From Eledone cirrhosa (taxonomy: Eukaryota): 64,000 nt of DNA. The notes under the pieces were generated by a model. The model searched no databases, had not been told where the DNA came from, and saw only the letters and a program-made list of their open reading frames with translations. Position numbers and translations under genes: made by a program. Every line of letters starts with the position of its first letter. The stretch's first letter is position 1. Shown here piece by piece: positions 2,942 through 55,079 of the stretch. The stretch spans positions 26,164,001 to 26,228,000 of the forward strand of contig OZ024752.1 of the NCBI GenBank assembly GCA_964016885.1, read 5' to 3'.

Positions 2942-3264
2942 TTATGTGTGCGCGTGTTTATGTATAGACTGTAAATAAATCTACAAAAATAATGAGAATA
3001 TTGAATTAATACATAACTGATTATGCATATATTTGTATAGTAAAATAAGTGGAATACTTGTGATACTCAGAGTACCCCCTAAAGAATTGCGTATAGAAAA
3101 CATGTTTTCATTCAGCCCAAAGTATATTCTTCGTATAAGCATCATGTCGCCATTTTTATTATTAAGTAAACATCCTATACAGGCAGTAAGTATTATTAGT
3201 GCTATTATTTCCCTTGGGTCAGAAATCTGCTGTAATATTTCTTTAAATTTCTATATTTGCAAAT

Positions 3265-3321
<57 letters not shown>

Positions 3322-3342
3322 TGTGTGTGTGTGGGGAAAGAA

Positions 3343-3520
3343 TCAGGACCCCGACGGCTGAGCTCCGGCCGATTCGACAGCTAGATGCGAACTGTCAAAA
3401 CGGCCGGAGCTCGGCCGTCGGGGTCCTGACTCTTTTCCTATTACCCACTCTACTACTCTAAGTATTGAGTACTCTGGTGCGTTATGGTCAACCTGGTAAC
3501 TTACCACACCCTCATTGTTT
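3343..3520 (+). mobile_element. PLE-type fold-back fragment (GAAACGGC...GCCGTCGGGGTC family)
   Basis: Palindrome at 3343-3429 followed by a tail shared with 36240-36335, 32604-32680 (rc) and 43113-43200 (rc). Confidence 0.75.
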
Positions 3521-4331: not shown

Positions 4332-4518
4332 AATTGTTTCTACTTTTAGCACAAGGCCAGCAATTATTCCAGTGCATTACTGGTACTTTATTTTATCGAA
4401 CCCGTAAGGATGAAAGGCAAAGTTAACCTCGGCAGGATTTGAAATCAGAACGAAAAGGGACATAACTCTATGCTGCCAAGCACCGTGTTTGACACTCTAC
4501 CGATACTGCCAATCCACC
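4332..4518 (-). mobile_element. tRNA-derived Nin-type SINE
   Basis: Full-length copy of the same family, with tail GGCCTTGTGCTAAAAGTAGAAACAATT on the minus strand. Confidence 0.88.
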
Positions 4519-5224
4519 GTTGCTGAATAATGTAATAATATAATAATATCTATGTATTGATATGAGTGTGCGTGCATACATAAGGAGCAAAAGTCTTAGC
4601 TGCTAACTCAACCTAAATATTCAGAAACTATAGTTGTGAGAAGTGAAAGTGGAGAAAATTATCTCACAAGTGTTTAAATTGATTCCAATCAAAGCTACAG
4701 CCGTGTTCTGTCCAAATGTCTTTCCTCTCTGGTCTCTGGGGGACCTTATGTATTCCCACAAGAACTCTCTAAACATTTTTGCCATTCCTAGACGTCAACA
4801 AATGTAAGAGCTAATATTATTCGCCCCCCACCCCCACCCCGGTCACCGAGAACGATATAAAAATAGATAGACAGTTAGCTAGGTATAAATATTAACAAAA
4901 GTACTAACACAGTGTGGTTCATAATATTAGTGTATACATGAAGACATATACAATATGTTTGTCCATTATATATAAGAGTCTCACTATCAATATTTTAAGC
5001 TGTGATAATGTCGGTTTACGAATATTTCGGGTAACGATCGGCCTTCAGCAACGAATTAAGTTCGTCAATCGAGGTTCCAATATCCCGTAATAGGGTGAAA
5101 GCAGAAATTATTTGCTCAAATTTTAATCTGTACTAATAATAAATATTTGTATATACTTTTTGTATTATATATATATGCAATCCTTATCGAGCCCTATTCG
5201 GATTTCATTCTTTGTAATTATTAC

Positions 5225-6490: not shown

Positions 6491-6675
6491 AATTGTTTCT
6501 ACTTTTGGCACAAGGCCAGCAATTACCCAGTAAATTACTGGTACTTTATTTTATCGACCCCGTAAGGATGAAAGGCAAAGTTAACCTCGGCGGGATTTGA
6601 ACTCAGAATGGCAAGGGCCGTAACTCTATACGTCAAAGCATGGCGTCCGACCCTCTACCGATACTGCCAATTCAC
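6491..6675 (-). mobile_element. tRNA-derived Nin-type SINE inserted in an AAT run
   Basis: Full copy flanked by AATAAT on both sides. The empty site is visible in the sister arm (GCATTATTATTAAAGG near 7004-7019). Confidence 0.9.
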
Positions 6676-7005: not shown

Positions 7006-7061
7006 ATTATTATTAAAGGACTTGAACATCTGAAACTACTTCGCTTTTACTTATTCGTTAT

Positions 7062-8347: not shown

Positions 8348-8710
8348 GCACACAAATAAACATACATATCTCTACTTTCTTTATTTCAATAGATAGTCTG
8401 AATTTTGACACCCCAGCGCACCAGCCATTTTCACTGAACCAGAACAATTCTCCCCATCCCATTTATCTTGACCATTATCTTTTGTTTCTCTAAAAGGCTA
8501 CAAAATAAATTCCCAAATACGGACACGGAATTTAATGTACTTGTTCACGTGACAGTCATAATATCATTTACAACCAATCAAATTACATTTCATCACATCA
8601 GTCATACTCAGAACAACTCTCTCCATCTTTTTTTCTTGACCATTATCTTTTGTTTGGCACAAAATTCTCTAAATGGCTATAAAACAATTCCAAAATGCGG
8701 GCGCGAAATA

Positions 8711-9035
8711 TATATCAATGATATTAATAAATGGAAACTATCTTTATAAAACCATATTTATATTATCATATATATTTCAAAGGTACCAACATTTTGGTAC
8801 GCCCTCATCAGATAAAATACAAAAGTTGTTTTATAAATATTGACATATCCAAAAAAACAAGAACTTAAAGCGATAAGTTCTTGTTTTTTAAAATGTCAAT
8901 ATGTCAATATTTATAAAACAACTTTTGTATTTTATCTGCTGAGATCGTATCAAAATGTTGGTATCCTTGAAATATATATAATAAAATAAATATGCTTTTA
9001 TAAATATAGTTTCCATTTATTAATATCATTGATAT
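8711..9035. mobile_element. PLE-type fold-back with HHR motifs
   Basis: 8711-8866 is the approximate reverse complement of 8873-9035. CTGATGA..GAAA lies on the minus strand near 8762-8817, with a mutated CTGCTGA copy on plus near 8936. Confidence 0.75.
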
Positions 9036-9145
9036 TATACTCCAGAAGAAAACTGTAGAGGGCTTCGAATCTGTTATAAATAAATTTGTTGAATAACCAA
9101 CAAATTAAATATCTCTTTGCTTATATATATATATATATATATTTA

Positions 9146-9375
9146 TTTATTAAAATAACAGATTAAAGTTTAAGCAAAGATTCGCTGCATTCACCCTTAA
9201 CGGGATCTTCTGAAACTCAGTTAAGATCCCGTTAAGGGTGAAAGCAGCGATTCTTTACTTAAACTTTAATCTGTTATTTTAATAAATATTTGCTCTACGG
9301 TTCTTATATATTTGATATATATTTATCCTTATGGAGCCCTCTTTGGATTTTAGTCTTCAAATTTATTATTATTAA
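9146..9375. mobile_element. PLE-type fold-back (GATCCCGTTAAGGGTGAAAGCAG family)
   Basis: Inverted arms centred near 9215 and flanked by (TA)n. Same family at 5080-5225, 17952-18012 and 63570-63787. Confidence 0.75.
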
Positions 9376-9508: not shown

Positions 9509-9552
<44 letters not shown>

Positions 9553-9556
<4 letters not shown>

Positions 9557-9769
9557 TTAATATAGAAGAGATTCTACAGGACTAGAACTGTTTCATTCTT
9601 TAGAAATCATCAGGAATGATTCTTGATGATTTCTAAAGATTCCTGATGATTTCTAAAGAATGAAACAGTTCTAGTCCTGTAGAATCTCTTCTATATTAAA
9701 ACTTTTATACTCTGCAATGTATTGAGTACCTTACTTACTGTGGTTACCTCCGATTCAACCCGGAATAAC

Positions 9770-10582: not shown

Positions 10583-10716
10583 ATATATATATATATATAT
10601 ACATACATACATTTATATATTTATACATATATATATACATATAAATATATATATACATATATATATACATATATACATACATATAAACATAGATATATAT
10701 ACATACATACATACAT

Positions 10717-10809
10717 ACAGGACTAGAACTGTTTCATTCGTGAGAAATCATCAGGTCCTGATGATTTCTCACGAATGAAACAATTCTAGTCCTGTAGAAG
10801 CTCTTCTAT
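10717..10809. mobile_element. Short PLE fold-back pivoting directly 5' of the HHR core
   Basis: ...AAATCATCAG-GTC-CTGATGATTT...; the arms are reverse complements. Confidence 0.8.
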
Positions 10810-10890: not shown

Positions 10891-11795
10891 CAAGAACAGG
10901 AGATTAACACGAAATACCTGATTCAGAAAAGAGATAGGGATGCAGGCAAGACACCTAGATGTGATAACAAGTGCAGACTCTGCAGAACTAACATCGAGGA
11001 TATCACCCATGTCATCAGCAGCTGTCAAAAGATGTCATTACAGTACTATTTACCTATGAGGCATGATGTAGTGGCCAAAACACTGTACAATGCAATCCGT
11101 AAAAAAGATGGACCCGATAATAAACACATTAAAAGCTACAGCAATGTGGAAGACATCCACGTACATAATATGAATGAGTACTGGTGGAATGTTCCAGTAA
11201 AATCCCCAATAAAATGCAGGCATAACAGACTAAATATTATGATATGGGACAGGGAAAAGAAGGCATGCACAGTAGTGGAAATTGGCTGCCCAGCAGATGC
11301 CAATATAATATCAAAGATTAGTGAAAAGGAGAATATTTATGCAGAACTGATGAGAAATCTGCAGATACGCACCCTGATTATACCTTCAGATTTATGCCTG
11401 TGATTATTGGGGAACTGGGATATGTTAGTAACTGCCTCAAAACAAATCTTGAGAAGCTAGGCTTCACAGGAACAGAAAGAACACAACTAGTTAGGAAATT
11501 ACAAGTACAATCCATTAATGGAACAGTAAAAATATGTAAAACACTCCAAAAATGTTGCATCTAATAACTGCATATACACATGTACAGATGCAAAGCATAT
11601 ACACATGCACACATACAACTCAAAACATCCACATCCACACATACAATAACATCCATATCTACACATGCATACATACATATCTACCTAGTTGATGTTGTGT
11701 AAATTCCAATGAGAGAGTCTTGTGTCTATGTTAGAAACCGACTCTCTCTCTCTCTCTCTATTGGTAAAATTCTGTGAAATTATAAAACCAGAAGA
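10891..11795 (+). mobile_element. 5'-truncated R4/Dong-like (RLE-type) non-LTR retrotransposon
   Basis: QEQEINTK, CRLCx7HVISSC zinc knuckle, RHDVVAK, degenerate RPD (RLNI) and VVEIGCP. After a frameshift near 11370 it continues as PVIIGELG...GTVKICKT. Flanked by (CATA)n. Confidence 0.85.
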
Positions 11796-12373
11796 ACATA
11801 CATACATAACATACATACATGCATGCATACATAACATACATACATACATACATAGTTATGGACTCTATGGAAAAACAGAGGCAATCAGTTGGTATCGTTA
11901 AAATGCTAGGTCTACGTTCTCAGTTCAAATTATGCTGGGATCAACTTTGCCCACCATCCTTGTGGGGTCGATAAAATAAAGTGACAATCAGGATTGGGCG
12001 AATTCGTTAGTATATCCGGTTTAATTTTTGGATTTCTATTGGTTAAGTCAATAAAGGTAGCGCTACAGATCTGATTTTAATCACATTGTCGTCTTTTTTT
12101 TTTTTTATTTAATTGTATATTTATACTGTATTTCGCTTCACTTTCATTGGTTCATTAGCAGGTTAGACTTTTTTGTCAATTTAAATAGTTATGTTGTTGA
12201 TGTCGGAATTTCAACGTCTCTCTTGTCAACTCAGTCACTCTTAGGCAATCTGTTATTTACATAGTTTGCATTTCAGAAAGAAAAAAAAAACATTAAAAAA
12301 AATAAACAAAATAGGTTGACTTCCGAATCTAAAATTTGAAAAATATAGACGCTAAAATGCTGATAACTACAAT

Positions 12374-12558
12374 AATTGTTTCTACTTTTGGCACAAGGCC
12401 AGCAATTATCCCAGTGTATTACTGGTGCTTTCTTTTATCGACCCCGTACGGAGGAAGGGCAAAGTTAACCTCGGCGGGATTTGAATTCAGACCGTAAAGG
12501 GGCATAATTCTATACAACAGAGCACGGCGTCTGACTCTCTACCGATTCTGCCAATCCA
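12374..12558 (-). mobile_element. tRNA-derived Nin-type SINE
   Basis: Full copy of the family. Confidence 0.85.
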
Positions 12559-13039
12559 ATAGTTGATGACTATTGATACTAGTTGAATAAATCGGGTAAA
12601 GTACCCCTGGATATAGAAAAAAGAGAACGCAGATAGCTGAGGGAAATAGAACCCTGAATCTCTCGTAAGTCAAGTAACCATGTCCGTCTGTGTGGTTACA
12701 TACAGACTAGCTGACACTCACTGTAAAGTGTCTAGTGAAAAAACTGAGTACATGTACAGATGTATACATGTGTGTATTTATATGCATACTAATACTTCCG
12801 TATACATATGTAGATGTACACTTTAACTTAATTGTTTAAGCGTCAGTCATACAAAAGTGAGTTAGAAGCGAAACGAAATTTAATTTCGTTTCGTTATTTG
12901 TTTTTATCGTTTCCACTGAACCGGTGCGTACAATGACTCACGTTCTATGCAAATTAGTCTACCCACTACTAATTTTCATAGAAAAAGCATATAACGATAT
13001 GTGCTTTTACAATTCTCCAGAGAAGCCGGAAGATGGGTA

Positions 13040-13084
13040 AATATTGCTGATGAGATGTAATAACATCGAAACTAGTCCAATATT
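13040..13084 (+). ncRNA. Minimal type I hammerhead ribozyme, copy 1
   Basis: AATATTG-CTGATGA-GATGT(aata)ACATC-GAAA-CTAG-TC-CAATATT. Predicted GUC cleavage after 13077. Confidence 0.9.
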
Positions 13085-13509
13085 CCTGTCTGGCTCTCTG
13101 GAGGATAGAGGAAATGTGTTTCCTTGAAACCTCGTATGACTCTAAAACCCGGTCCGTCTGTGTGGTTACATACAGACTAGCTGACACTCACTGTAAAGTG
13201 TCTAGTGAAAAAACTGAGTACATGTACAGATGTATACATGTGTGTATTTATATGCATACTAATACTTCCGTATACATATGTAGATGTACACTTTAACTTA
13301 ATTGTTTAAGCGTCAGTCATACAAAAGTGAGTTAGAAGCGAAACGAAATTTAATTTCGTTTCGTTATTTGTTTTTATCGTTTCCGCTGAACCGGTGCGTA
13401 CAATGACTCACGTTCTATGCAAATTAGTCTACCCACTACTAATTTTCATAGAAAAAGCATATAACGATATGTGCTTTTACAATTCTCCAGAGAAGCCGGA
13501 AGATGGGTA

Positions 13510-13554
13510 AATATTGCTGATGAGATGTAATAACATCGAAACTAGTCCAATATT
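13510..13554 (+). ncRNA. Minimal type I hammerhead ribozyme, copy 2
   Basis: Identical to copy 1. Predicted cleavage after 13547. Confidence 0.9.
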
Positions 13555-13979
13555 CCTGTCTGGCCCTCTGGGGAATAGAGGAAATGTGTTTCCTTGAAAC
13601 CTCGTATGACTCTAAAACCCGGTCCGTCTGTGTGGTTACATACAGACTAGCTGACACTCACTGTAAAGTGTCTAGTGAAAAAACTGAGTACATGTACAGA
13701 TGTATACATGTGTGTATTTATATGCATACTAATACTTCCGTATACATATGTAGATGTACACTTTAACTTAATTGTTTAAGCGTCAGTCATACAAAAGTGA
13801 GTTAGAAGCGAAACGAAATTTAATTTCGTTTCGTTATTTGTTTTTATCGTTTCCGCTGAACCGGTGCGTACAATGACTCACGTTCTATGCAAATTAGTCT
13901 ACCCACTACTAATTTTCATAGAAAAAGCATATAACGATATGTGCTTTTACAATTCTCCAGAGAAGCCGGAAGATGGGTA

Positions 13980-14024
13980 AATATTGCTGATGAGATGTAA
14001 TAACATCGAAACTAGTCCAATATT
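13980..14024 (+). ncRNA. Minimal type I hammerhead ribozyme, copy 3
   Basis: Identical to copy 1. Predicted cleavage after 14017. Confidence 0.9.
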
Positions 14025-14310
14025 CCTGTCTGGCCCTCTGGAGAATAGAGGAAATGTGTTTCCTTGAAACCTCGTATGACTCTAAAACCCGGTCCGTCTG
14101 TGTGGTTACATACAGACTAGCTGACACTCACTGTAAAGTATCTAGTGAAAAAACTGAGTACATGTACAGATGTATACATGTGTGTATTTATATGCATACT
14201 AATACTTCCGTATACATATGTAGATGTACACTTTAACTTAATTGTTTAAGCGTCAGTCATACAAAAGTGAGTTAGAAGCGAAACGAAATTTAATTTCGTT
14301 TCGTTATTTG

Positions 14311-14371
<61 letters not shown>

Positions 14372-14373
<2 letters not shown>

Positions 14374-14806
14374 GTAGAAGTTCTATTTAAATTGTTGGTA
14401 TACAACAAGCAAATATTTTTATAACTGATATAAAGCATTCAACAAATTATTGGAGTAAAAATACGATATATTAACAAATGGAAACTATATTTATAAAACC
14501 ATATTTATTTCATTATACATATTTCAAGGACACCAAGTTAAATTATGGTGTGCTTTCATCAGATAAAATATAATATAGATCAGTTTTATAAATAAATATT
14601 GACATACCCTTAAAGAATGCGACCATTTCTGTTGGAAGCTAAATGGGCGCATTCTTTAAGGGTATGTCAATATTTATTTATAAAACTGATCTATATTATA
14701 TTTTATCTGATGAAAGCACACCATAATTTAACTTGGTGTCCTTGAAATATGTATAATGAAATAAATATGGTTTTATAAATACAGTTTCCATTTGTTAATA
14801 TATCGT
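14372..14806. mobile_element. PLE-type fold-back with an HHR in both arms
   Basis: 14461-14620 is the reverse complement of 14648-14807. HHR on plus at 14701-14761 (TTTTAT-CTGATGA...GAAA-TATGTA-TA-ATGAAA). (TA)n flanks. Confidence 0.85.
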
Positions 14807-14835
14807 ATATATATATATATATATTTGTATATATA

Positions 14836-18849: not shown

Positions 18850-19602
18850 CGCCAACCACTAGATATCATATCTACGATGGATGACTTGCGTAATGTCCAG
18901 TGCTTTGCTATATTTCTTACATCACCAGAACCACCAGTTCGACGCTTTGGTGATCAAAATAACTTAAAAAGTATATATATGTGTGTGTGTTGTGTTTATA
19001 TATATATATTTTTTTTTTTTTCTGATGAGGACGTACTGGTGAAACAGCACAGTACCTCTGAAATATATAGAATGAAATATATTTGATCACATGAATGTCT
19101 ATATTTATTAATATATATATATATTAATAAAAGGAATTCCAACTTTGTCTGATTTACTCGTTTTATTTACAATCCTTTAAAATTTATAATGGTATTAGAA
19201 TGAAATAGTATGGTAGAATATTAAATGTTAAGTGTTAATTGAACAAGTACTTTCATGCTTTCGCAATCTTCAGGTTCATATTCTGTGGTGACAGTCAAGT
19301 ATGCAATTATATAATTAATCGTTTTTGATTTTACTAAACTCTGATGATTCCTATGGTTGTGCTAAATAATAACAAATTGTTGGATAAAATAAGTTGCTGT
19401 CTGAGGTATATTCTAATGGGAAGAAACAATTGTGAGTAATTAAATGTCTTAAACTTCTAATTTTGGTTTATATGTACATTAAAATTATATATTAGCTCTG
19501 CTTGATCCTATCACAGCATTGAGCTAAGATATACCGAGTAAATGAGTAAAACCTATTCTTTACTCTCATTATATATATATACATATTATATATAATGAAG
19601 AT

Positions 19603-19786
19603 GTGGATTGGCAGTATCGGTAGAGAGTCGGACACCATGCTTTGAAGCATAGAGTTACGTCGCTTTATGATCTGAGTTCAAATCCCGCCGAGGTTAACTT
19701 TGCCTTTCATCCTTATGGGGTCGATAAAATAAAGTACCAGTAATGTACTGAGTAATTGCTGGCCTTGTGCCTAAAATAGAAACAAT

Positions 19787-20709: not shown

Positions 20710-20759
<50 letters not shown>

Positions 20760-21033
20760 TAATAATAATGATTTCTTTATTAACCACAAGGGTTTACATA
20801 AAGTAGACATTAAGGACAGTGCAGGACAATGCAGGACGGTACAAATGGGCATTTCTGCGTGTAAAAAAAACAAAAATAGAGGATGTAACAAAAATAACAA
20901 TGAAAATAACAATGAAAAATTCCCCAATAGGGGGGGAGACTTCGGAGGGACATTTGTGGAGAAAGCCCAGTAAAAAGCCACAATGACCCTGACCACCAAG
21001 GCAAGTGCCCTCTCCCAGTTTTCCACCTTTAGT

Positions 21034-24000
21034 TTACAGATATATACTCAGAGTCGGCCCATTCACTCGGGCCATTCTTGCTTCTCTCACCCATCTTTCA
21101 ACAAAATGCTGGGAAGAGAGCACTTCCTTCTCTACTCTGATTTTCCTTTTCAAATGAAATTTGAAAAAGTCAATCAGAGCATCACCGAAGAGGTAAGTGC
21201 TCGTCTTCAGCCCTTTCAAACGTGTCCACCATACTATCTCTTTCGCCATGGCCACCAGACAGATGAAAACTGCCTGCCCTTCCCGGCTAAAGGAGGAGGG
21301 CGGGGCAATCCTCACGATAGACTCAGATGATAGCTGGATCCGTCCTAAACGCGACAGCAGGTGTTCGACATAAACCCACAAGTCAGCAATTTTCGGACAC
21401 TGGACGAGTGCGTGCAGGACGGTTTCGTCGCCCTGCGCGCATCTCGGACATGCCCGGCTGACGGCACCTCCATGCCTGTAGAGTTTATCCCGAACTGGCA
21501 AGGCTCCTCGGTAGCACTGCCAGGCCAGAGATTTCTGGAAGTTGTCCATAGGCCCCGGCCCGAAGGTTCTTCCGAAGAGATTGGCTAGTTGATTTTCGTC
21601 GACGCCTAGAGTTTCCCCAAGTACGTCGTCGCTCTTCCCCTCCACTAATCCTCTATAGAACGCCGAGGTGGAGTTTCCACCGATCACATTGCCCGATTGG
21701 TCGAGGGCTGTGAGCGCCTGAAGACATTCCAGTCTCCAGGCGCTCCCTCTCGGTCTTCGCTTGACCCAGGACTGCAGCTCCGTCAAGGAAACGAGCTGGG
21801 GAAAAACGCGTCTAGCAAACGGCGACCACACCTGATCACCGTCGAGGAAGAGGTGGAGATGTCGTAGCCTGAGCGCGTGCCTGCGCATCATCAGCCACGG
21901 CATGCCCAGCCCTCCACGTAGCGGGTGTTGACAACAGATGGACCGCCTGACCATCGGAGCACGTCCCTTCCACAAAAAGCGAAAGAGCAAACGCTCCAGC
22001 GCAGTCAGGCGAGGCTTAGGACAAGGTACGACGGTTAGGCGGTAGCAGATGACAGACGCGATGTACGCGTTAGCCACCTCCGCTCGACCTTTCAGGGATA
22101 GCTTCCTCTCCGCCCATTTCTGGGTGAGAGAAGCCACCCTGCTCGTCACCTCGTCCCAGTTTTTGTCCGTCTGGAGGTCCGGACCGAACCAGACCCCTAG
22201 CAATTTAACCGGTCCGTCCGTCCAGCGCCCGACGACGCTGTTGGACGGCATGGACCTGCCTCTCCAGGTGCCGAGCTGCAGGCCCACTGACTTTTCCTGG
22301 TTGATCATTGCTCCTGTCACCGCTTCGTATTCTCTTAGTGTAGTGCCGATCGCCTCGATGTGTTTGGCGTTCGACACCACTACGGTGACATCGTCCGCAT
22401 ATGCTGACACGGATCTTCCGCATCCTAGTTCGCGCGGGACTCCCCTCAACGTCTCCAGTTTGTGCAGTAATGGCTCGAGAGTCAATACGTACAAGAGGGA
22501 CGAGAGGGGACATCCTTGGCGGACCGAGCGCATGATGTTGAACGGTTCCGACAGGTGACCGTTCACTCTCACCACAGAGCAGATGTCGCTGTGCATGGCA
22601 GCGATCCAGCCTCTGAAGACGGGCCCAAAGCCAGCCGCCCTCAGGACTGCCGCTAGGTAACGATGGTCGACCCTATCGAAAGCTTTCGACTGATCTAAAT
22701 TGATCAAGGACCCACCCGTGCCAGGTTCCCTAGCTACCCTCTCTACGATGTATCGCATGAGGTGGAGGTTGTCGTGGATGGATCTGTCGGGAATGGCGCA
22801 TGTCTGCGCCTCTCCCACCAGACCACCAACGACAAGCGCCAACCTCTTTGCTAGCACCTTGGCCAAAATCTTAAACTCTGTGTTTAGCAGAGTTATGGGC
22901 CGGAAATTGTCTATGTTATCCCCCTTGTTCGGATCCTTTCTCAGCAGTGCCACCGCTCCTCGGCTCACAGAACTGGGAATTCTCCCGTTCTGTTGCCAGT
23001 TGCAGTAGACGTCCGCCAAGAGGCCTCCGAACAAGTCTGGCATCTGTACGTAAAGTTCATAGGGCAGACCATCCAAACCAGGCGATTTACCCCTTGTGCA
23101 GCCAGTCATTGCCTCCCTTACTTCAGCGGCTGTTATCGGCTTTTCGCAACACTTCGCCTCAGTGGCCGAGAGCCGCGGCAGTCCGTCGAGGTAGACACTA
23201 AAGTCCATCCCTCTACCCGGCCCCCCGCTGCCCCCGAACAGCTGAGCGAAGTGTCGCTGAAAAGCTTCACACATTTGCCCGGGATCGAGTAGCATGCGCC
23301 CGTCGTGGTCCACCAAAGACCGGATCGTGGCTTTGTTGCCACGACGCGCCTCCGCCACTCGGGCCCATTGAACGGCTTTCGTCCCCTCGTGTCTGAGAGC
23401 ACGCACCCTAGCTCTGACAACGCAGCCTTCGTGCTTTGCATTGAAGAATTGGTCAAGGGCCAATTTCGCCGCAAGCACGTCGGTCGCAATGCCTTTGCTA
23501 AGCGCCTCGTCTAATTTTCTAACTAGTTCTCCCTCTGCTCTATTTTTCTCTATTGCTAAAGCCTTACTAAACCTAATCGATTCTATTCTAATCGCTCTTT
23601 TCAGAGCAAACCACCACTTGTTGTTGACGATGGCCCCCGTCAACGCCCGCTTAACTAGTTCGCTAATCCGGTCTCTGTAGGCCTTGCGCGCTGGTAAGGA
23701 CGCGTTTAGCTTCCAGTAGCCGGGTCCTCGTCTATGAAGCCTATCTAAGTCAAGCACACAGATCACGAATTTGTGGTCCGTGTAGCTGACTATCTTGAAT
23801 TGTGGACAGCCTATGCTAGACCTATCTATTTCCCTACAAAATACTCTATCTAGATATGATCTGGATGACCCTATGCGGTTTGTCCAAGTCCACATTGGCA
23901 CATTCGGGAAATCCAATCGGTACCTGTCAGACAGTTCAAAACGCCTGAGCAGGTTGGTGAGGCTCTTGCACCCTCCACCCCTATCCGCTAATCCCACACA

Positions 24001-24453
24001 GTCCCAGCGTGCATCTAAGATCCCGTTCCAGTCGCCCACTAACACTAAAGAGCGCGACGTTCCAAGAAAGGTCTCCAGACGCCGGAAGAAATCAGGCCGC
24101 CCTGCTCCTGTCGGGGCATAGACGGCCACTAGCCTGAAAGCTTGCCCGTCTCCGCTGGTCACGTCCAGCACCACCAGCTTACCCTCTGGGTCCAGGAAGA
24201 TGGCCCGTATGGCGAGATCCAAACCTCTCCGAAAAAGCACAGCAACTCCTCCACCCGATCCAGGACGGCTGGGAGATGCGTACACATCGTAGCCGCCGAA
24301 GATCGGTGCGAAGGCCCGTGCTTCGGAGATTCTGGTCTCGCTGATGGCCACTACATCTATGTTTAGTGACCTGAGGTCGTTGAGCAGGTGACCCTGCTTC
24401 CATGACGACCCCAAGCCACGCGCATTTATGCTGCCTATTCTGAGTGAGGTCAT
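21034..24453 (-). CDS. ORF2: APE endonuclease, reverse transcriptase and C-terminal Cys/His knuckle (L1-Tx1), 1139 aa
   Basis: APE motifs INARGL, ISET, VYAP, GDWN, SYLDR and YTDH. RT motifs KSPGLDG, RPITLLN, DQSKAFDRV, RQGCPLS and YADD. C-terminal CPRCx8HALVQC. Confidence 0.97.
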   Translation of the reverse strand: MTSLRIGSINARGLGSSWKQGHLLNDLRSLNIDVVAISETRISEARAFAPIFGGYDVYASPSRPGSGGGVAVLFRRGLDLAIRAIFLDPEGKLVVLDVTSGDGQAFRLVAVYAPTGAGRPDFFRRLETFLGTSRSLVLVGDWNGILDARWDCVGLADRGGGCKSLTNLLRRFELSDRYRLDFPNVPMWTWTNRIGSSRSYLDRVFCREIDRSSIGCPQFKIVSYTDHKFVICVLDLDRLHRRGPGYWKLNASLPARKAYRDRISELVKRALTGAIVNNKWWFALKRAIRIESIRFSKALAIEKNRAEGELVRKLDEALSKGIATDVLAAKLALDQFFNAKHEGCVVRARVRALRHEGTKAVQWARVAEARRGNKATIRSLVDHDGRMLLDPGQMCEAFQRHFAQLFGGSGGPGRGMDFSVYLDGLPRLSATEAKCCEKPITAAEVREAMTGCTRGKSPGLDGLPYELYVQMPDLFGGLLADVYCNWQQNGRIPSSVSRGAVALLRKDPNKGDNIDNFRPITLLNTEFKILAKVLAKRLALVVGGLVGEAQTCAIPDRSIHDNLHLMRYIVERVAREPGTGGSLINLDQSKAFDRVDHRYLAAVLRAAGFGPVFRGWIAAMHSDICSVVRVNGHLSEPFNIMRSVRQGCPLSSLLYVLTLEPLLHKLETLRGVPRELGCGRSVSAYADDVTVVVSNAKHIEAIGTTLREYEAVTGAMINQEKSVGLQLGTWRGRSMPSNSVVGRWTDGPVKLLGVWFGPDLQTDKNWDEVTSRVASLTQKWAERKLSLKGRAEVANAYIASVICYRLTVVPCPKPRLTALERLLFRFLWKGRAPMVRRSICCQHPLRGGLGMPWLMMRRHALRLRHLHLFLDGDQVWSPFARRVFPQLVSLTELQSWVKRRPRGSAWRLECLQALTALDQSGNVIGGNSTSAFYRGLVEGKSDDVLGETLGVDENQLANLFGRTFGPGPMDNFQKSLAWQCYRGALPVRDKLYRHGGAVSRACPRCAQGDETVLHALVQCPKIADLWVYVEHLLSRLGRIQLSSESIVRIAPPSSFSREGQAVFICLVAMAKEIVWWTRLKGLKTSTYLFGDALIDFFKFHLKRKIRVEKEVLSSQHFVERWVREARMARVNGPTLSIYL

Positions 24454-24488
24454 GTTTAAAATAGAGTGGAAAAGATGGGAAAGACCAC

Positions 24489-26588
24489 TTACCGTATTTT
24501 TGGTAGAGGAGGGATGGTTTTTACATCCCTTTTCACTTGATCGTCTGGTGAAGGGACCGTTGAATCGTCCCTTCGGCTGGTCGTCGGCTCTTCTAAGAGA
24601 ATGTCTGAATATACTCTTCGATTAATGGTTCCTCCTAGGTCCCTGAAATCACCAACTGCGTTGGGGAATTTCGTTTTAATGTTTGTGTATTGTTTCTGTG
24701 CTATTTTTAGCAGTCTTATGTTAGTTGGCGTTTTGATTGGTGCTGGTATTATGTAGTCCTGTTGTGAAATGTCTGTGTGTTCAATTATGTAAGTCATTAG
24801 TTTCTTGTTGTGTGTGTTTATTGCCGTGCATTTGTTTTTCTGGGGGTGGGGTGTGGTTCTGCTATTTTCTTGTCGTTGTTGCTGGGTGTGTGTGTTTTGT
24901 TGTTGTGTTTGCGATGTTGGTGCTTGTGGTGGTGGTGTTGAAGGTGTTGTTGGCGGTGGGGTTGTCGCCGGTGGTGATGGTGGTGCTGGTGTGGGTGGTG
25001 ATGGTGTTGGTGGTGTTGCTGCTGTGGGTCTCTTTGCAGTAGACTTTACCCTTTTCTCATTTCTTTCCTCCCTTTTCAAAGGCGACGATGCGCTGCTTCT
25101 GCGTTTGTGCCTTCTTGAGACCTTTTGCCATCCCTCTCCCACCTCACACTCCATGTCTGATTCTGTAAGGTCGGGGAGGGGTACCAGCTCCACTCTTTCA
25201 CTTGTTGTTGTTGGTGATGTTTGCACTGGAGTCTCTGTTGCAGCTGCATTTGGTATTGCTGTTGTTGTTGTTAATATTTCCACTGCTGCTGCTGTCTTTG
25301 ATTTCCGTGGAGTGGGTATGGGTGCCACGGACCTATCGTTCCTGGTTGCCGCTTGTCCTGTTGCTGGTAGCCGTGGAACCGGATTCGGGAGGAGGGGGGT
25401 TTTCTCCTTTCTCAGGGTCTTCTCGTTGCAGAAGGCCCTGAGGTGAGTCTTCGATCCACAGCGAAAGCATTTCGGGCGTTTGCCCTCAACACTTATGGGC
25501 AGTTGAGTGCCGTTATCGAAGTCTATCACATCCGGGATAGCTTCGATGCACTCCTGGTTGGTTTGGATTAGCATCTCAATGGAGGAGCCGACCCAATCTT
25601 CTCTTACTTTTTTCTGTACTTGCAGTACAGTTGTTTTGTCCTCGATTCCGACGAGGACAGACGCGGCCAGCCAAGAAGGGGTCATTCCGGGGGGGACGTG
25701 GGTCAGTTTGACCCTCACAATTTTTTGCCCGCAGTAGGAGGGCACCAACACCATTTCCTCGCTCCTTAGGGTCACTACTGATTGGGCCTTTGCCTCCTGG
25801 GGTGTGGCAAAAAGTACGTCTACGGTGGCGTATTTTTTGCCTCGGGTGATGTGCGTTTTCCTCTGCCACACAGACCCCAAGGCTTTTTGTATTTGGGCCT
25901 CTGTGGCTCTTTCCACCCTACGGGATTTTGTACTTACTGTACGGTACGTGACCGTACAGTGCTCTTGGGTTTCGAAAAAATTTTTCGCTGCCTTGCAGAT
26001 TGCTCGGTGTCCGTTCTTTGTCACCATCTTCTTCGCTTCCTCTAATTCCTCATTTGTTATGAGGATTGTTTCCAGGTTTTTCGCAATACCTGCAAATGAG
26101 ATTGGTTTTTCTCTGCTGTTGTTGTTGTCGTCAGAGCTGCTGGTACTTTTGTTGTTGCTGCAGGTACTACGACTACTGCCTCCGCCGCTGTTGCTGTGGT
26201 TGTTGTTGGTGTTGCTGCTGCTAATGCTGTTGTTGTTTATGCTGCTGGTGATGCTGTTGCGGCTGCTACTGTTGTTTTCATTGTCACTGTTGCTGTTGTT
26301 ATTACGGCTGCTACTGCTATTATTCCTGACGTCAGACGAATGAACTGGGTTTTCGTATTTCCCGCACACCTGTTTCGTCGCTGTCGTCGTCGTCGTGGAG
26401 AAACCTTGCACGCTTTGCACGAGACTTTTCTTTTCTTTCGTCGCTTGCGAAAGAGAAGGTAGGGAGAGAGACACATTTAAAGAAGGGAGGGAGAGAGACA
26501 ATCTTCTCTCTCCTGTAGTGATGATTGAGGAAGAAGAAGACGGAATGAGTGGGAGTGACGTGTGAAATTTTTTTTTTTTGGTAGCCAT
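24489..26588 (-). CDS. ORF1: gag-like nucleic-acid-binding protein with CCHC zinc knuckle
   Basis: First ATG at 26588 (MATKKKKF). CFRCGSKTHLRAFC knuckle. N/S-rich and P/T-rich low-complexity linkers. Lies upstream of ORF2. Confidence 0.88.
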   Translation of the reverse strand: MATKKKKFHTSLPLIPSSSSSIITTGERRLSLSLPSLNVSLSLPSLSQATKEKKSLVQSVQGFSTTTTTATKQVCGKYENPVHSSDVRNNSSSSRNNNSNSDNENNSSSRNSITSSINNNSISSSNTNNNHSNSGGGSSRSTCSNNKSTSSSDDNNNSREKPISFAGIAKNLETILITNEELEEAKKMVTKNGHRAICKAAKNFFETQEHCTVTYRTVSTKSRRVERATEAQIQKALGSVWQRKTHITRGKKYATVDVLFATPQEAKAQSVVTLRSEEMVLVPSYCGQKIVRVKLTHVPPGMTPSWLAASVLVGIEDKTTVLQVQKKVREDWVGSSIEMLIQTNQECIEAIPDVIDFDNGTQLPISVEGKRPKCFRCGSKTHLRAFCNEKTLRKEKTPLLPNPVPRLPATGQAATRNDRSVAPIPTPRKSKTAAAVEILTTTTAIPNAAATETPVQTSPTTTSERVELVPLPDLTESDMECEVGEGWQKVSRRHKRRSSASSPLKREERNEKRVKSTAKRPTAATPPTPSPPTPAPPSPPATTPPPTTPSTPPPQAPTSQTQQQNTHTQQQRQENSRTTPHPQKNKCTAINTHNKKLMTYIIEHTDISQQDYIIPAPIKTPTNIRLLKIAQKQYTNIKTKFPNAVGDFRDLGGTINRRVYSDILLEEPTTSRRDDSTVPSPDDQVKRDVKTIPPLPKIR

Positions 26589-26881
26589 GTTTTTTTTGTT
26601 TAAAATGAAATTTTGGGTACAAAACCCCAATAACTGGCTATTTAACCCCGAAGGGCCAAATAACGGACAGAAAGACCCCTCTCACGAGGAGGAGGGTGTC
26701 TTTATCAACAATTTGGTTCAAGTTTTAAACAATTTACAATTGTTTTAACGGTTAAAAATTACTATACCTTACAGAGCCGAGCCTCCGTCAACCATGGCAT
26801 TCAATAATAATAATAATAATAACGACAACAACAATAATAATATACACATTCATACACACACACACACGCACGCACATAAGC

Positions 26882-26927: not shown

Positions 26928-27860
26928 CTAACAGTGCTGCGATCGAATGTGGCTTTTTAGCCCAGCCAATGATCCAAAATGTCTTGCACAGAGTCGGCAA
27001 CCAAAACATTTACTGGGAATAGTCGGCTGTGGTTGGAGTTCGTGTACTTTTGCATGTCGCTTGAGTCCTCCTGCTGATTTACATTCTCTACCACATGTTT
27101 GGCAAGCATGATGAGTAGCATCTCCAACAGCAGCCTGGTAGTCAACCACTGGTCTTACTTTATGACTGCGAAGATGACTTTCGAGTCCAGCTTTGCTTAG
27201 GCAGAGTCTCGCACAGACGCTGCATGTCAGAAACATAGGAGGACCCTCGCCGTCTGGAAGTGCAACAGCAATACCCTTCCTCACGTCCCGCTTTACTTTC
27301 TCGTGTGCGATTCGAGATGCCTCAAAGGCAACTTTTCCCTCATATACAGTCTTTCTCCATTTATTACGATCAGCAGCAATATTTTCCCATGTATCAGCAG
27401 AGATGTTAGCGTCTTTCAGAGAGGCCTTCAAGGAATCCTTATACCTCTTTTTTGGTTTATGTGGCGGTCGTTTTCCTTTAACCAACTCTCCATAGAAGAG
27501 TTGTTTTGGTATTCTAGAATCCTTCATCCTGGCAAGGTGACCACTCCAACGGAGTCGCTGCTTAAGCACAAGAGCTTCTATACTGTCACACATAGAGCTT
27601 TCCAAAATCTCGACATCACTGATGTGGTCCCTCCAGCGAACGCCATGTATCCGTCTGAGACACATCTGATGGAAACGCTCCAATTGCTTAAGGTGGCGTC
27701 GATATGTGACCCAGGTCTCGCAGGCATAAAGAAGACAAGAGAGTACACATGCCCTGTACACCCTTACCTTTGTCCTCCTGCATATGTCTCGCCGACCCCA
27801 GAGTCGCCTTTCTAGCTTTCCGAAAGCATCACTTGCTTTCCTAATCCTAAGTGAGATTTC
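26928..27860 (-). pseudogene. RTE ORF C-terminal part (RT thumb plus three C2H2 zinc fingers)
   Basis: EISLRIRKASDAFGKL, TKVRVYRACVLSCLLYACETW, RLRWSGHLARM and RIPKQLFYGEL, followed by three C2H2 motifs. Confidence 0.92.
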
Positions 27861-28124
27861 ACCTAAGTGAGATTTCATCATAAATACATACGTGTATACA
27901 TACATACATACATACATACATACATACATACATACATACATACATACATACATACATACATACATACATACATACATACATACATACATACATAGATATA
28001 CATACACACATAGATACATACATACCTGTATACATACATGTATACATACACACATTCATACATACACACATACACACATACATATACACACATACATATA
28101 TGCATACATACATACGCATACATA

Positions 28125-32075: not shown

Positions 32076-32248
32076 AATTGTTTCTACTTTTGGCACAAAG
32101 CCAGCAATTACCCAGTGTATTACTGGTACTTTATTTTATTGACGCCCTAAGAATGAAAGGCAAAGTTGACCCCGGCGGGATTTGAACTCAGAATGGCAAG
32201 GGCCGTAACTCTATGCTAGAAAGCATGGGATCCAACTCTCTACCGATT
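32076..32248 (-). mobile_element. tRNA-derived Nin-type SINE
   Basis: Family match. A further partial copy lies at 32965-33089 (minus). Confidence 0.85.
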
Positions 32249-33794: not shown

Positions 33795-36334
33795 AACCAG
33801 TAAGACCCCGACAGCTGAGCTCAAGCCGTTTCGACGGCTAATTCTGGACTAAATGAAAATTTATCCTGGTATTTAAATAGCCGATCTTCTCAAGGGGTAA
33901 TTCCATATATGGTCAAAGTGATTGTCAAAAATCAGTAGTAATTCTGTGGTTGCAAATTAGTAGGGGAGATGGTGGCTAAACCTGCCAGTAGGAGAAAGAG
34001 GGGAGGGGTGGAGTAGACCCAATCAAGCGTTGGTAGTGCCAGCTACAGCTGGGCATGAGGTCAAAGAAGATACAGGGGAGGGGAGGGGGAGGAAGTCGGA
34101 ACGGTAGGTAGAACAATGGGGGGTAGAAATATATAGGAAAGAAAAAATACTGAGAGTGAAGAAAAGCAAATAAGTGTAAAGAAAAAAGTAAAGTAAATTA
34201 AATTCTACGACCTAGGTCTCTAGCTATTGTTAGGCTAGAATAAATAAATAAAGAAAGAAAGAAGTAAAGTGGTTTCCGGGAGGAAATATCCTACTGTCCA
34301 GCTCCCATTAGCGGAACCAGCAGGAGACACCGCCGCTCACGCAATGTAACATGGTTCAATCCTCCCCACAACGCAGAGGTGACAACTCCCATCGGGAAAC
34401 TATTCTTTAGGCTCATTGAAAAACACTTCCCATTACAACACCGCTACCACAACATAATTAACAAAAATACCATCAAACTCTCTTACAGCACTACACCAAA
34501 CTTCGCACAAAACATCGTCTCCTCTAACAACAAAAAACTCAACCCCGATGGCAGAAATAACCTAAATAGCAGTGGAGAACCGACCAGGAGGTGTAACTGC
34601 CCGGATAGATCTATTTGCCCACTCGACAATAGATGCAGAGACCGTAATGTGATCTACCAGTGCAACGTGAGGACGGATACCTCCAACAAAGCCTATATAG
34701 GACTTACCGCATGTGACTTCAAGACCCGGCTATACCAACATAGACATACCTTCCGAAACCCGGCCCGGCGTCACGCCACTACACTTTCGGGCCACATATG
34801 GGACCTCAAGGACAAAAACATCACCTATGATCTCACTTGGAGATTACTGTCCAGAGCCAATTCTTACACGGGAGGACGCCGTCCGTGCAATTTATGCTCG
34901 GAGGAAACTTTACAAATGCTGTTTTCGACGGACCAACTCCTAAACAAGAAAGATGAACTGGTTACTGCATGTAAACATAGATTGCGTAGGACTTACCTCG
35001 CCCTCAAACCCCATAATGACCCGGGGGGGGGGGTAGACTAGGGCTATAACACCCCACTTGCCGATTTTGCAATGGGTAACCCCTGCTTGCCAAGGGAGAC
35101 GTAAGATCTTCTTTGTATTCTTTTATCGCTTCCTTTATTTCCTTCCCCCCTCTCTCCTTAGTCCTTCTACCCCAGCTCTTCTCCTTTGTCGGCGTCTTTT
35201 CTCGCCCACCCGAGGCTGCCCTTTGGCCCCTTGTAGCCTTAGTACCCCCACCCCCTCCCCTAGTCTATGATAGATTTGGCGGACTCCGCCCTTTATAGCA
35301 GTTGGTTTAGACCCCGGATACTTGTCCCCTTTTTCCGACCGCTCCCACTATTCTCTGTGCCCTCTATATTTCTTAGTGGCACTTATGCCTTATTTTTTCG
35401 TTTCAGTATTTCTTTCTTCGCTTTTCTTTTGGGCGGGGTGGATTCTGAATTTATTTTTCCGTATTCTACCTTTACTTCGTACGAACTTTCATGTAGCTTG
35501 TTTTAGATCTTTTAGAGTTAGCATTAGTATATATTTTTCTCGGGACTCAGAATTATTATCTCGTACAAGTTCACTTTGCTGCACTGGGTGGTTGCTGGCA
35601 TTGTGCCCGGGATGGAAGCCTTTATTGTTTATTTCGTGGTAGTCTCTTTAGTATTTTGGCCCCTTTTGTTGACCCGTCACCGTATCATTTACGTACTTAT
35701 ACCTCTTAAAAGGGTCCTTGCCTATTCCGTCCCACCTAGTTCTTTTACTTATTTCGTTATTTCTTTATTTCTTTCTTTACTTCTTTCTTTCTTTATTTAT
35801 TTATTCTAGCCTAACAATAGCTAGAGACCTAGGTCGTAGAATTTAATTTACTTTACTTTTTTCTTTACACTTATTTGCTTTTCTTCACTCTCAGTATTTT
35901 TTCTTTCCTATATATTTCTACCCCCCCATTGTTCTACCTACCGTTCCGACTTCCTCCCCCTCCCCCTCCCCTGTATCTTCTTTGACCTCATGCCTAGCTG
36001 TAGCTGGCACTACCAACGCTTGATTGGGTCTACTCCACCCCCTCCCCTCTTTCTCCTACTGGCAGGTTTAGCCACCATCTCCCCTACTAATTTGCAACCA
36101 CAGAATTACTACTGATTTTTGACAATCACTTTGACCATATATGGAATTACCCCTTGAGAAGATCGGCTATTTAAATACCAGGATAAATTTTCATTTAGTC
36201 CAGAATTAGCCGTCGAAACGGCTTGAGCTCAGCTGTCGGGGTCTTACTGGTTCCTATTACCCACTCTACTACCTCAAGTATTGAGTACTTTGGTGCGTTA
36301 TGGTCCACCTGGTTCCTTACCACATTTCCTTCGT

Positions 36335-39753: not shown

Positions 39754-41289
39754 TACATATATACATACATACATACATACATACATACATACATACATAC
39801 ATACATACATACATACATACATACATAGAGGCCTAACACGCCGACATATTAGCTTTTTTCATTCGTAGTGAAAATAAAAGATTTTCCTTTCAAATATGGT
39901 GTAAGTAGCATACGACTTCCTTTTCCAGGGGAGATAGATTATCATCGAGATCTCTCAACTGCCCTGGTGTTGAATTCCAGCAATAAAAAGAAAACAGCTG
40001 TTTCAACTCCCAGCTTCTATTCTTCTGTGTTTCTCAAAGAATTCTCAATTAGATGGTTCAAAACCTTCAAAGAAAATTTTCTGAATTCCTCAAAGAAAGC
40101 TCAGTGGAGTCGTCCCGCTCTACGATTCAATCCAAATATTCGGAATTTCTCTATTTGCTTCATTTAGTGGTTTAACTCTCAAGTTTAATTTGTTCTATAT
40201 TTCTTGAAGAATGTTCAAACGGCAGGATCATTCTACTCGCATTTCCCTAAAGAAAGTTCAGAGGAATGACTCAGCTGTCCTATTTTAATCAAATTTTCTT
40301 TACTGAAATACAGTCTGATTGAATACTACAACGTTCAGCATTCAATATAAATGATCTAAGTTTATATTGATTTCTAATTTAGGCACAACAAATTGGAAGA
40401 AAGGTAAAGTAGATTAAATCAACTTCCGTACATGGCTGCTACTCTATTTCATCGACCCAGTAAGGATTAAAGGCAAAATTTACCACGGCGAGGTTTAAAC
40501 ACAGAGAGTAGAGTGCTGAAATGAATATTGTAAAGCATTCTGTCTAGATAGGTTTGTGGTCGAGCCTGTGCCAATGGAGACATCCGGCGTTTTTTGGTCC
40601 CCGGACCACGTCCCTAATAACTGCTATCGGGGTGGAGTTGGTTAGCCTCAAGAGCGATCCTCCGCGAGTTGAAGTGGCTGTTCCAGCACGTCTACCTCGC
40701 CATCCTCCGGGTCAATGACTTCCTTATTTTGTCTGCTGATACCACCAGGCGAACTAACCCTTAAACAGTGAGTTACAAACAATGTGTGATTGTTTTTTGT
40801 CGTCAAAATATATTTATACAAATACTTCAATAGCATTTCAACCGACGGTCTACCGGTTATGCCAACCCACTATCCCTGATCTAATTATATAGTCATTAAT
40901 AGAAACGTAGCTGCGTGTTTTAAATCCAAGACAATGATCTCAACATTTTTTTCCCCAAAATCTCTTAGCTAACGTTTTCAACACGAAATAAATAATTTGA
41001 ATTGCTGACAGCAAGTTGGACCGAAACTGTCACAACAAAAGTGTTGTATGGAGGCTGGTGTGTTAATAAATGAAGTGAGCAACTAGAGTTTTAGGCGGGG
41101 AACTGATACGTCGGGGCAGAAGAAATACACCATCCTCCACACTTCCCAGGGCATTAATCTCTACTTCATATCACGTGACACCACCATACATCGTTTCCGT
41201 TCGTTTTATTTCCCCTTCATATCAGATTCAGACCGAGGCAGAACAATAATTACGTCTACCAATTCCAGAGACTACACATATCAGATAGT

Positions 41290-47726: not shown

Positions 47727-47942
47727 GCACACACACACATGCTCACGTGCTCAAACATTGTCTAGAATGCTGCCATATGTTTTCTAACTAGCAATATCAA
47801 ACTAGACCACACCCATCACTACCACCACATCCACCATTAATTTCTGTTTTCACAACCACACCACATGCAACTGCATCAACTACATAGCCACCATTGACAC
47901 TGTCAGAAATAGCAGCCAAACATCCTTAAAGGTGTATATGTA

Positions 47943-48122
47943 TCGGCAATATCGGTAGAGAGTTGGACGCCATTCTTTGCAGCATAGAGTTACGGCCCTT
48001 TATGATATGAGTTCAAATCCCGCAGAGGTTAACTTTGCCTTTCAACCTTGCGGGATCGATAAAATAAAGTACCAGTAATACACTGGGTAATTGCTGGCCT
48101 TGTGCCAAAAGTAGAAACCATT
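47943..48122 (+). mobile_element. tRNA-derived Nin-type SINE
   Basis: Family match, including the tail CCTTGTGCCAAAAGTAGAAACCATT. Confidence 0.88.
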
Positions 48123-54644: not shown

Positions 54645-54830
54645 ATTGTTTCTACGTTAGGCACAAGGCCAGCAATTACCCAGTACATGACTGGTACTTT
54701 ATTTTATCGACCCCGTAAGGATGAAAGGCAAAGTTAACCTTGGCGGGATTTGAACTCAGAAAGGCAAGGGCCGTAACTCCATACGTCAAAGCATGGCGTC
54801 CGACCCTCTACCAATACTGCCAATCTACCG
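54645..54830 (-). mobile_element. tRNA-derived Nin-type SINE
   Basis: Full copy of the family. Confidence 0.9.
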
Positions 54831-54910: not shown

Positions 54911-55079
54911 ACGGTAGAGAGTCGGACGCCATGCTTTCCAGCATAGTTACGTCGCTTTACGGTCTGAGTTCAAATCCCGCCGTGGTTTACTTTGCCTTTC
55001 ATCCTTACGGGGTCGATAAAATAAAGTACCAGTAATGCACTGGTTAATTGCTGGCCTTGTGCCTAAAGTAGAAACAATT
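54911..55079 (+). mobile_element. tRNA-derived Nin-type SINE, slightly 5' truncated
   Basis: Family match. It lies head-to-head with the previous copy. Confidence 0.88.

Follow-up and report, generated by a model that had tools for sequence, protein, structure and literature searches.

A shared predicted 3′ hairpin suggests a tailless Tx1-like LINE lineage as candidate partner of an abundant SINE in Eledone cirrhosa

Introduction

Several stringent LINEs are described that copy partner SINEs through a shared RNA structure. In the L2 elements ZfL2-1/2 and UnaL2, the last together with UnaSINE, the ORF2 protein reads a 3′ stem-loop in which the loop confers specificity and the stems can be swapped (PMC4176376). 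Pairs of the L1 clade have been reported for maize and sorghum (LINE1-1_ZM with ZmSINE2/3) and for Chlamydomonas (L1-1_CR with SINEX-3), in which a 3′ stem-loop is likewise common to LINE and SINE and the loop is kept while the stem varies (PMC3472496, PMC3747384). The shared stretch in these pairs spans 45-80 nt, and poly(A) is still present in the algal pair and in most plant L1s. These plant and algal pairs are the only strict L1-clade SINE pairs given in the consulted sections of the two sources, and Table 1 of PMC3747384 contains no Tx1 pair and no cephalopod pair. The same sections leave open whether the L1 group began strict at its 3′ end and then relaxed to poly(A), or the reverse.

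Within the Tx1 clade, the closest described case is the crocodilian SINEU with Tx1-Mar (PMC4494074), for which a Tx1-driven SINE was inferred from target preference, duplications of about 10-16 bp and tandem insertions; microsatellite targeting by Tx1 elements and a 16-bp duplication for a Tx1-driven SINE are given in the same source. SINEU has poly(A), and the consulted part of that paper reports that no LINE with the 3′ terminus of SINEU-1 was found. Microsatellite targeting is also known for Kibi and Koshi (Tx1 clade; TC and TTC repeats) and for Dong (TAA repeats), and the relevant passages give no Tx1-type element that targets (ATT)n (PMC4494074, PMC3812793).

SINEs make up 11.6% of the Octopus vulgaris genome, in which 80 L1-Tx1 and 51 Dong-R4 consensus families have been defined. 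The open literature yielded no published 3′ match between a Tx1 element and a SINE, no animal L1-group pair and no partner for an octopus SINE, with repeat databases and some subscription papers outside this scope. The consulted parts of PMC4758252, PMC4824008, PMC5804259, PMC5786205, PMC8967140, PMC10294476, PMC9115989 and PMC3472496 name no partner for the SINE considered here.

The present analysis concerns a 64-kb stretch of the E. cirrhosa genome, called the window, in which a first-pass annotation had noticed that a Tx1 LINE and an abundant SINE end alike. The SINE differs from SINEU in having a 3′ motif in common with a LINE, in lacking poly(A) and in carrying tRNA-type A and B boxes in its head. 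The core shared by LINE and SINE, about 11-22 nt, is short beside the 45-80 nt of the plant and algal L1 pairs and beside known stringent pairs generally, and a second LINE clade matches as well. By analogy, the pair might nevertheless work like the stringent L2 and plant/algal L1 pairs, and it is a candidate for the stringent class. The pattern of change in its hairpin, with the loop kept and the stem altered, resembles that of the L2 pairs (PMC4176376). The L2 elements differ in that they belong to another clade, end in templated repeats and have binding demonstrated by experiment, whereas binding is proposed here from sequence comparison.

Results

A full-length Tx1-like LINE and its public relatives

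The minus strand of the window carries an intact LINE (Table 1). Its ORF2, with an N-terminal APE endonuclease, a reverse transcriptase and a C-terminal CCHC finger, has the anatomy of the L1/Tx1 group, and among solved structures it matches human L1 ORF2p best (E 3e-52; R2 1e-21). The CCHC knuckle of ORF1 is visible in the sequence, and Pfam zf-CCHC was detected in the ORF1 of a relative only. A separate ORF1 with such a knuckle, both of which this LINE has, is a feature that we take to be typical of Tx1 rather than of vertebrate L1. The element is accordingly called Tx1-like, a label that rests on ORF anatomy and this presumed ORF1 feature, named Tx1 references being absent from the database matches and the tree having unnamed rows only.

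Some observations on this element stand apart from the question of the SINE. Its 5′ UTR contains a GC-rich hairpin (26670-26700, minus strand) with a CTCGT loop closed by C-G, like the 3′ hairpin described below, and the 5′ UTR of a relative has similar arms and a longer loop. DNA nearly identical to positions 20760-24600 is present in public runs under 17 organism labels, with at least half of the sampled words in 13 runs; this could reflect a family that is young or changes slowly across species, or else transfer from one species to another. A contig of run X16, under another organism label, has the same LINE 3′ end with one substitution and two gaps over 269 nt. Three reads of run X22 match only the last 41 nt of the LINE (20752-20792), with six differences and other sequence on the 5′ side, and represent either a very short LINE copy or a different element sharing that end. 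Directly upstream of the LINE lies a 5′-truncated RTE-like LINE (26928-27880, minus strand) in (TATG)n, with several C2H2 zinc fingers at the end of its ORF.

Table 1. Positions of retroelements and of their parts in the window
Feature	Position	Strand	Duplication or basis
Full-length L1/Tx1-type LINE, ~6.0 kb, ORF1 and ORF2 open	20770..26801	-	Ends fixed from target-site duplication
LINE ORF1, 699 aa from ATG, CCHC knuckle	24489..26588	-	Homologous to relatives' ORF1 (E 6e-12)
LINE ORF2, 1139 aa: APE endonuclease, reverse transcriptase, zf-RVT	21034..24453	-	
LINE 3′ UTR, 264 nt	20770..21033	-	
Predicted hairpin HP1 of LINE: AACC stem, CTTGT loop, GGTT stem	20782..20794	-	Fold and pair counts
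AATAAA immediately 3′ of HP1; gives part of the 8-nt spacer and first A of AGAAA	20776..20781	-	
3′ copy of 13-bp target-site duplication of LINE, (ATT)4G	20757..20769	-	Flanking sequence
5′ copy of 13-bp duplication of LINE, within (ATT)n-rich run	26802..26814	-	
SINE copy	4335..4525	-	14 bp exact (19 with one mismatch by eye), begins ATTAT
SINE copy in (ATT)3 site, one inverted-repeat arm	6494..6675	-	6 bp plus one extra ATT unit
Empty (ATT)3 site, sister arm of the inverted repeat	7006..7014	+	
SINE copy	12377..12558	-	None found
SINE copy in (AT)n	19598..19784	+	19 bp, 1 mismatch, 8 nt from assumed boundary
SINE copy, 5′ end missing, one motif mismatch	32079..32247	-	
SINE copy	47939..48119	+	None found
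SINE copy	54647..54830	-	Exact 21 bp, begins ATTAT
SINE copy, 5′ truncated, stops before ATTAG	54912..55076	+	
Old diverged SINE copy, longer body (pyrimidine tract before tail), ends AGAAATC as the LINE does	40369..40505	-	
5′-truncated, frameshifted restriction-like-endonuclease LINE (Dong/R4-like) in (ATAC)n	10891..11797	+	
CTTGTG-N8-AGAAAC in long predicted hairpin (z -2.8) of that fragment's 3′ UTR, 60 nt before its end	11718..11739	+	

Relatives of the LINE were sought by alignment of the ORF2 protein alone, without use of the 3′ motif, which gave 43 loci among bacterial genome records. Thirty-eight of these are LINE copies at 40-44% ORF2 identity (about 41%) in animal-like DNA within one bacterial bin (G001). 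The 39 loci at which the match reaches the end of ORF2 were examined and the other four left out; GGCCTNGTGCC is present at 36 of those examined, 641-726 nt beyond ORF2, with GGCCT[T/C/A]GTGCC as the conserved word. The three misses are one sister copy without flank and two distant elements, so that the word is present in 36 of 36 sister copies with a 3′ flank, which are not independent copies but represent about seven close subfamilies and the family L035, 48% identical to L004, from one assembly. The 10 fixed letters of the word would be met by chance with a probability of about 4e-4 over the whole 750-nt UTR and of 3e-5 in its last 60 nt. In the relatives, a C-tract and an A- or T-run come before the word, and a second hairpin and AATAAA come after it. 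This second hairpin varies in sequence while 6-9 pairs are kept in 10 of 12 variants.

Both deep families of relatives form one clade with the ORF2 of the window (SH-aLRT 99) in a quick tree with 51 unnamed rows. As an outgroup, 23 of 73 distant L1/Tx1-like loci were kept, namely those whose ORF2 end is complete and followed by 150 nt or more of sequence. The hairpin is present at none of these 23 loci (16.5 kb of downstream DNA scanned), and an A-run of 10 or more is found at 6 of them. Conservation of the 3′ motif within the Tx1-like lineage, on which the first-pass annotation had staked its reading, was borne out by the 36 flanked copies.

The relatives occur on contigs of 13-94 kb (L004-L039, L044) in a bacterial bin with hundreds of kilobases of animal-like DNA, where intact Tx1-like LINEs stand head to tail in arrays. 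The array unit measures about 6.4-6.8 kb, the copies belong to several subfamilies and lack tails, and the spacers between them are short and variable. Of 243 genomes in the order to which G001 belongs, only G001 contains the LINE. A telomeric reading of these arrays was tried and dropped as unsupported, because G001 contains no TTAGGG run. The same host DNA includes a repeated 8.2-kb unit (L165, G001:C16) with two tRNA-Ser(TGA) genes and an LTR-type pol ORF. A GC-rich element without ORF, about 270-450 nt long, is also seen there (L162 17540-18092, plus strand; L165 about 3100-3450, plus strand; L166 13000-13400, minus strand). It may be another SINE-like client or a 3′ UTR remnant of another Tx1 family.

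The SINE family

Nine close copies of the SINE occur in the 64 kb. In the alignment of copies, the head contains an A-box-like TGGCAGTATCGG and a B-box-like GTTCAAATC, the features of a tRNA-derived SINE (SINE2), where the Pol III box consensus used for the call is our assumption. The SINE gave no Rfam tRNA match, and an Rfam scan of the window and four loci returned nothing at gathering score. The SINE had been labelled Nin-type. This label found no support in a one-word test, in which the core word common to the Lottia and Littorina Nin sequences, taken from a paper supplement, had no match at three or fewer mismatches, and no Nin likeness of the SINE body was apparent by eye. The SINE was not found in the four genomes behind the relative loci; in 179 genomes of one host-associated family, there is one 25-nt match (E 9e-4).

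The SINE copies are 5.5-11.5% diverged from their majority sequence, and contigs of one run that match the LINE end fall into every likeness class from under 90 to over 99%. By this crude comparison, the age ranges of SINE and LINE would allow co-activity.

Strength of the shared 3′ motif

On the minus strand, the LINE ends in CCTTGTG-GTTAATAA-AGAAA-TC-(ATT)n, just as the first-pass annotation had it, with the motif at 20791-20772. An exact pattern search also recovered the motif at all six SINE copies that had been claimed (6491, 12374, 19603, 47943, 54645 and 54911) and added a seventh exact copy at 4337 and an eighth with one mismatch at 32081. The pattern CCTTGTG-N{5,10}-AGAAA has eight exact matches in the 64-kb window, where 0.04 are expected (sd 0.20) and none of 100 shuffles reaches eight, but these matches are not independent, because seven belong to one SINE family. 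All motif matches in the window, LINE and SINE, have an 8-nt spacer and 2 nt before ATTA. In viral contigs, the pattern gave three matches in unrelated coding DNA, which are taken as chance, and searches of those contigs with the Tx1 alignment, the Dong alignment and the SINE word gave no match.

Since the SINE copies form one family, the fair test compares one LINE end with one SINE tail. In that comparison, 13-16 of 22 letters are identical, which gives a binomial p of about 1e-4 to 2e-3 without correction for how many LINE families a genome contains. This is suggestive, but the match alone would not withstand a search over many LINE families. Local alignment to the SINE tails scores 18-27 for the relatives (L004), 16-24 for the Dong-like fragment, 12-24 for the LINE of the window and 14-21 for an RTE control, the 3′ ends compared from this organism being one Tx1, one Dong-like and one RTE. 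Against the CCA-type SINE copies, the LINE of the window scores 16 for three of four and 12 for the fourth, no better than the 17-19 of the RTE control. The RTE fragment itself was considered as a partner of the SINE and rejected, as the motif is absent at its end.

The Tx1-like relatives share about 11-14 nt with the SINE tail, exact over 11-12 nt, and the SINE stem is closer to their stem than to that of the LINE in the window. The earlier proviso that the SINE might be driven through a relative of this exact family therefore agrees with the alignment scores.

The motif as part of a hairpin

When the LINE end is folded, a 4-bp stem AACC/GGTT is predicted around a CTTGT loop, and the SINE end is predicted to form a (T)GGC/GCC(A) stem around the identical loop, closed by C-G. 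The block CCTTGTG therefore corresponds to the CTTGT loop and its closing C-G pair. This hairpin is called HP1. Stem letters differ on both sides between the family of the window and all others while the loop is unchanged.

Covariation was assessed in an alignment of 19 rows: the LINE of the window, six SINE copies, eight relatives, three copies of the element without ORF and the Dong-like copy. The 4-pair stem is paired in 88% of cells, and 3 of 500 shuffles reach its covariation score, a test that is inflated by kinship among the rows. The named register outscores every slid register, and RNAalifold recovers the same three core pairs. The stem-loop thus carries compensatory changes from few independent events, because the LINE of the window is the one row that supplies every double-sided change in the core pairs. 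HP1 is weak on its own (z -1.3 for the LINE region), and the folds of three SINE 101-mers are no better than those of shuffles and lack HP1 in the best structures. The window contains eight HP1-type hairpins in total: six at SINE ends, one at the LINE 3′ end and one in the LINE 5′ UTR.

The fixed spacing of 8 and 2 nt, which had been read as part of the conserved signal, is not kept in the relatives, where the second hairpin fills the 18-22 nt between HP1 and AATAAA. A two-block motif with this spacing was accordingly rejected as the conserved unit. Because AATAAA adjoins HP1 in the LINE of the window and lies 18-22 nt away in the relatives, the AGAAA of the LINE may lack homology to that of the SINE.

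Junctions and target sites

The 5′ flank of the LINE ends in (ATT)4G, and the 3′ flank starts with the identical 13 letters, so that the first part of the (ATT)n "tail" is a target duplication within an ATT run; the G that anchors the duplication could instead be the first base of the element. Among the relatives, neither A6 nor (ATT)2 occurs in the 30 nt that follow AATAAA in 35 of the 36 sister copies. On these grounds, the proposal of a templated (ATT)n tail was rejected, and the long (ATT)n is mostly target plus duplication.

LINE and SINE both stop 2 nt after AGAAA. All eight SINE copies with a 3′ end have ATTA next, seven of them ATTAT (background 0.6% and 0.24%), and so does the LINE. 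Duplications from the SINE junction measure 14 bp (4337), 21 bp (54645), 19 bp with a mismatch and an offset (19603) and 6 bp (6491); that is, long duplications accompany three of eight copies and a 6-bp one a fourth, with none convincing in the remaining four. The 13-bp duplication of the LINE and those at 4337 and 54645 start with ATTAT. The SINE and the LINE of the window have a common insertion signature, supported by ATTAT after the last base and by long duplications (13 bp for the LINE, 14-21 bp for the SINE). The empty site of the copy at 6491 was confirmed: (ATT)3 stands at 7006-7014 in the sister arm of the inverted repeat, while in the filled arm two units precede the SINE and four follow it. 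A SINE tail of about one unit, or slippage, is possible there because one ATT unit extends beyond the 6-bp duplication.

The spacers between head-to-tail copies of the relatives do not start with ATTAT, so the junction is not common to the sister families. In run X1, joint rows show truncated LINE copies after the 3′ end of another copy, one with an ATT run on the 5′ side. The evidence for a target preference of the LINE consists of one full copy, with its 13-bp duplication in (ATT)n, and few such joint rows.

A Dong/R4-like fragment with the motif

A third type of element with the motif, missing from the first-pass annotation, is the restriction-like-endonuclease LINE fragment in Table 1. By alignment, it has a reverse transcriptase, a C-terminal CCHC and a restriction-like endonuclease with no APE domain; its full-length homologue (P0069) has RVT_1 and likewise no APE domain. 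Named Dong/R4 references are absent among its matches, and its placement in the Dong/R4 clade is our presumption. Against the SINE tails, it matches 14-17 of 22 letters with the 8-nt spacer kept, compared with 13-16 of 22 for the LINE of the window; over eight SINE copies, its local score is higher for six, tied for one and lower for one. The first-pass annotation had named a better and longer match to another LINE clade as the result that would tell against a Tx1 partner. The Dong/R4-like copy indeed matches equally or slightly better, but over the same 22 nt, not at the terminus and not over a longer stretch.

Discussion

The explanation that is favored by a modest lean is that a tailless Tx1 lineage, likely recognizing a stem-loop, mobilizes the SINE, not necessarily through the family in the window. 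Because LINE and SINE end in one predicted hairpin at ATT-rich sites with little or no tail, the lineage likely recognizes a structure at the 3′ end and not poly(A). The Tx1-type ORF2 of the lineage would bind the loop of HP1, in analogy to the L2 proteins. Its endonuclease would nick ATT-rich DNA, with a preference for the ATTAT junction, and reverse transcription would start a few bases downstream of the hairpin with no poly(A). The SINE might have captured its tail by template switch from a family with a GGC/GCC stem, after which a member of the lineage, not necessarily the family seen here, would copy the SINE in trans.

A SINE tail normally retains the terminus of its donor. This weighs on the rival idea that a Dong/R4-type LINE is the donor or present partner of the SINE and that the Tx1 match arose secondarily, for instance through acquisition of the same end by an ancestor of Tx1. 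The Dong-like copy does have CTTGTG-N8-AGAAAC with the SINE spacing and a small inner stem that CCT-type SINE copies can form, and it matches 16 of 22 letters for three young SINE copies and for the one at 47943, and 17 of 22 for the old copy. The consulted sources add that TAA repeats are the target of Dong elements, including one from a snail (PMC3812793), and that recent LINE insertions in O. vulgaris are most numerous for Dong-R4, at 1129 compared with 421 for L1-Tx1 (PMC13282606). However, its motif lies 60 nt before the end of the element, and the SINE has neither that terminus nor the outer stem, so that the donor terminus is kept for the Tx1 type and not for the Dong-like copy. HP1 is broken there by three G-U pairs and one A-C, the insertion is in (ATAC)n rather than at ATTAT, and the GGC arm of the SINE is matched by the Tx1 relatives instead. 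Moreover, this is a single decayed copy, and the related nuclease-domain fragments that were retrieved are remote (E 1e-11 or weaker) and lack the motif in the four that were read. A Dong/R4 origin is thus considered unlikely, and it is not placed lower because one decayed copy cannot represent some 50 Dong families.

The presence of the motif in two unrelated LINE types within one 64-kb window could also mean that it is a portable 3′ module, which LINE clades with common microsatellite targets have exchanged or which a host RNA-binding factor reads. In that case, several LINEs might be able to copy the SINE, and no single partner could be identified from the match. The element without ORF in the host of the relatives, which likewise ends in an A-run, the HP1 word, a second stem and AAATA, fits such a module, although it may be a truncated 3′ UTR of another Tx1 family. 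Given that one Dong-like copy is known, that no host factor has been named and that the motif is absent from the distant L1/Tx1-like elements, the RTE fragment of the window and those RTE-like ends of the other host that were read, this idea seems a little less probable still; it is in part compatible with recognition by a Tx1-like lineage. The least probable of the accounts, and one that we regard as improbable, holds that the tail of the SINE either derives from a partner now extinct or resembles the LINE end by chance, that the family in the window never touched the SINE and that the ATT context reflects repeat abundance. It draws on the mere 13-16 of 22 matching letters, the partial overlap of AGAAA with the AATAAA of the LINE, the differing stems and the commonness of ATT and AT repeats in the window. 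It is opposed by the exact 11-12-nt match at the 3′ end of relatives that were found without the motif, by an ATTA junction fixed in eight of eight SINE copies against a background of 0.6%, and by the overlapping ages of SINE and LINE.

If mobilization by a tailless Tx1-like lineage holds, the conserved loop, the naturally varying stems and the intact copy of an animal Tx1-type lineage would allow the question of the origin of L1 specificity to be tested with an 11-nt target, and a candidate motor would be named for a very abundant SINE. A wider conjecture, to which little probability is given, is that an animal L1-group lineage lacks poly(A) and that its tailless stem-loop module has crossed between APE-type Tx1 elements, restriction-like Dong/R4 elements and a dominant SINE, such that one RNA signal serves three kinds of microsatellite-targeting retroelement.

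Other features of the window

Long near-perfect inverted repeats lie at 8700-9300, 9550-9700, 10716-10796, 14460-14810, 43190-43640 and 63650-63790. In those at 9580-9680 and 10720-10795, the words CTGATGA and GAAAC are reminiscent of the hammerhead ribozymes of Penelope-like elements and mark putative candidates, for which Rfam gave nothing at gathering score. Two ORF fragments (34268-35041, plus strand, for which no Pfam match was obtained, and 52294-52869, minus strand) resemble what we take to be the GIY-YIG ends of Penelope-like elements, a putative assignment. Tandem units of 470 bp, about 99% identical, occupy positions 12676-14317.
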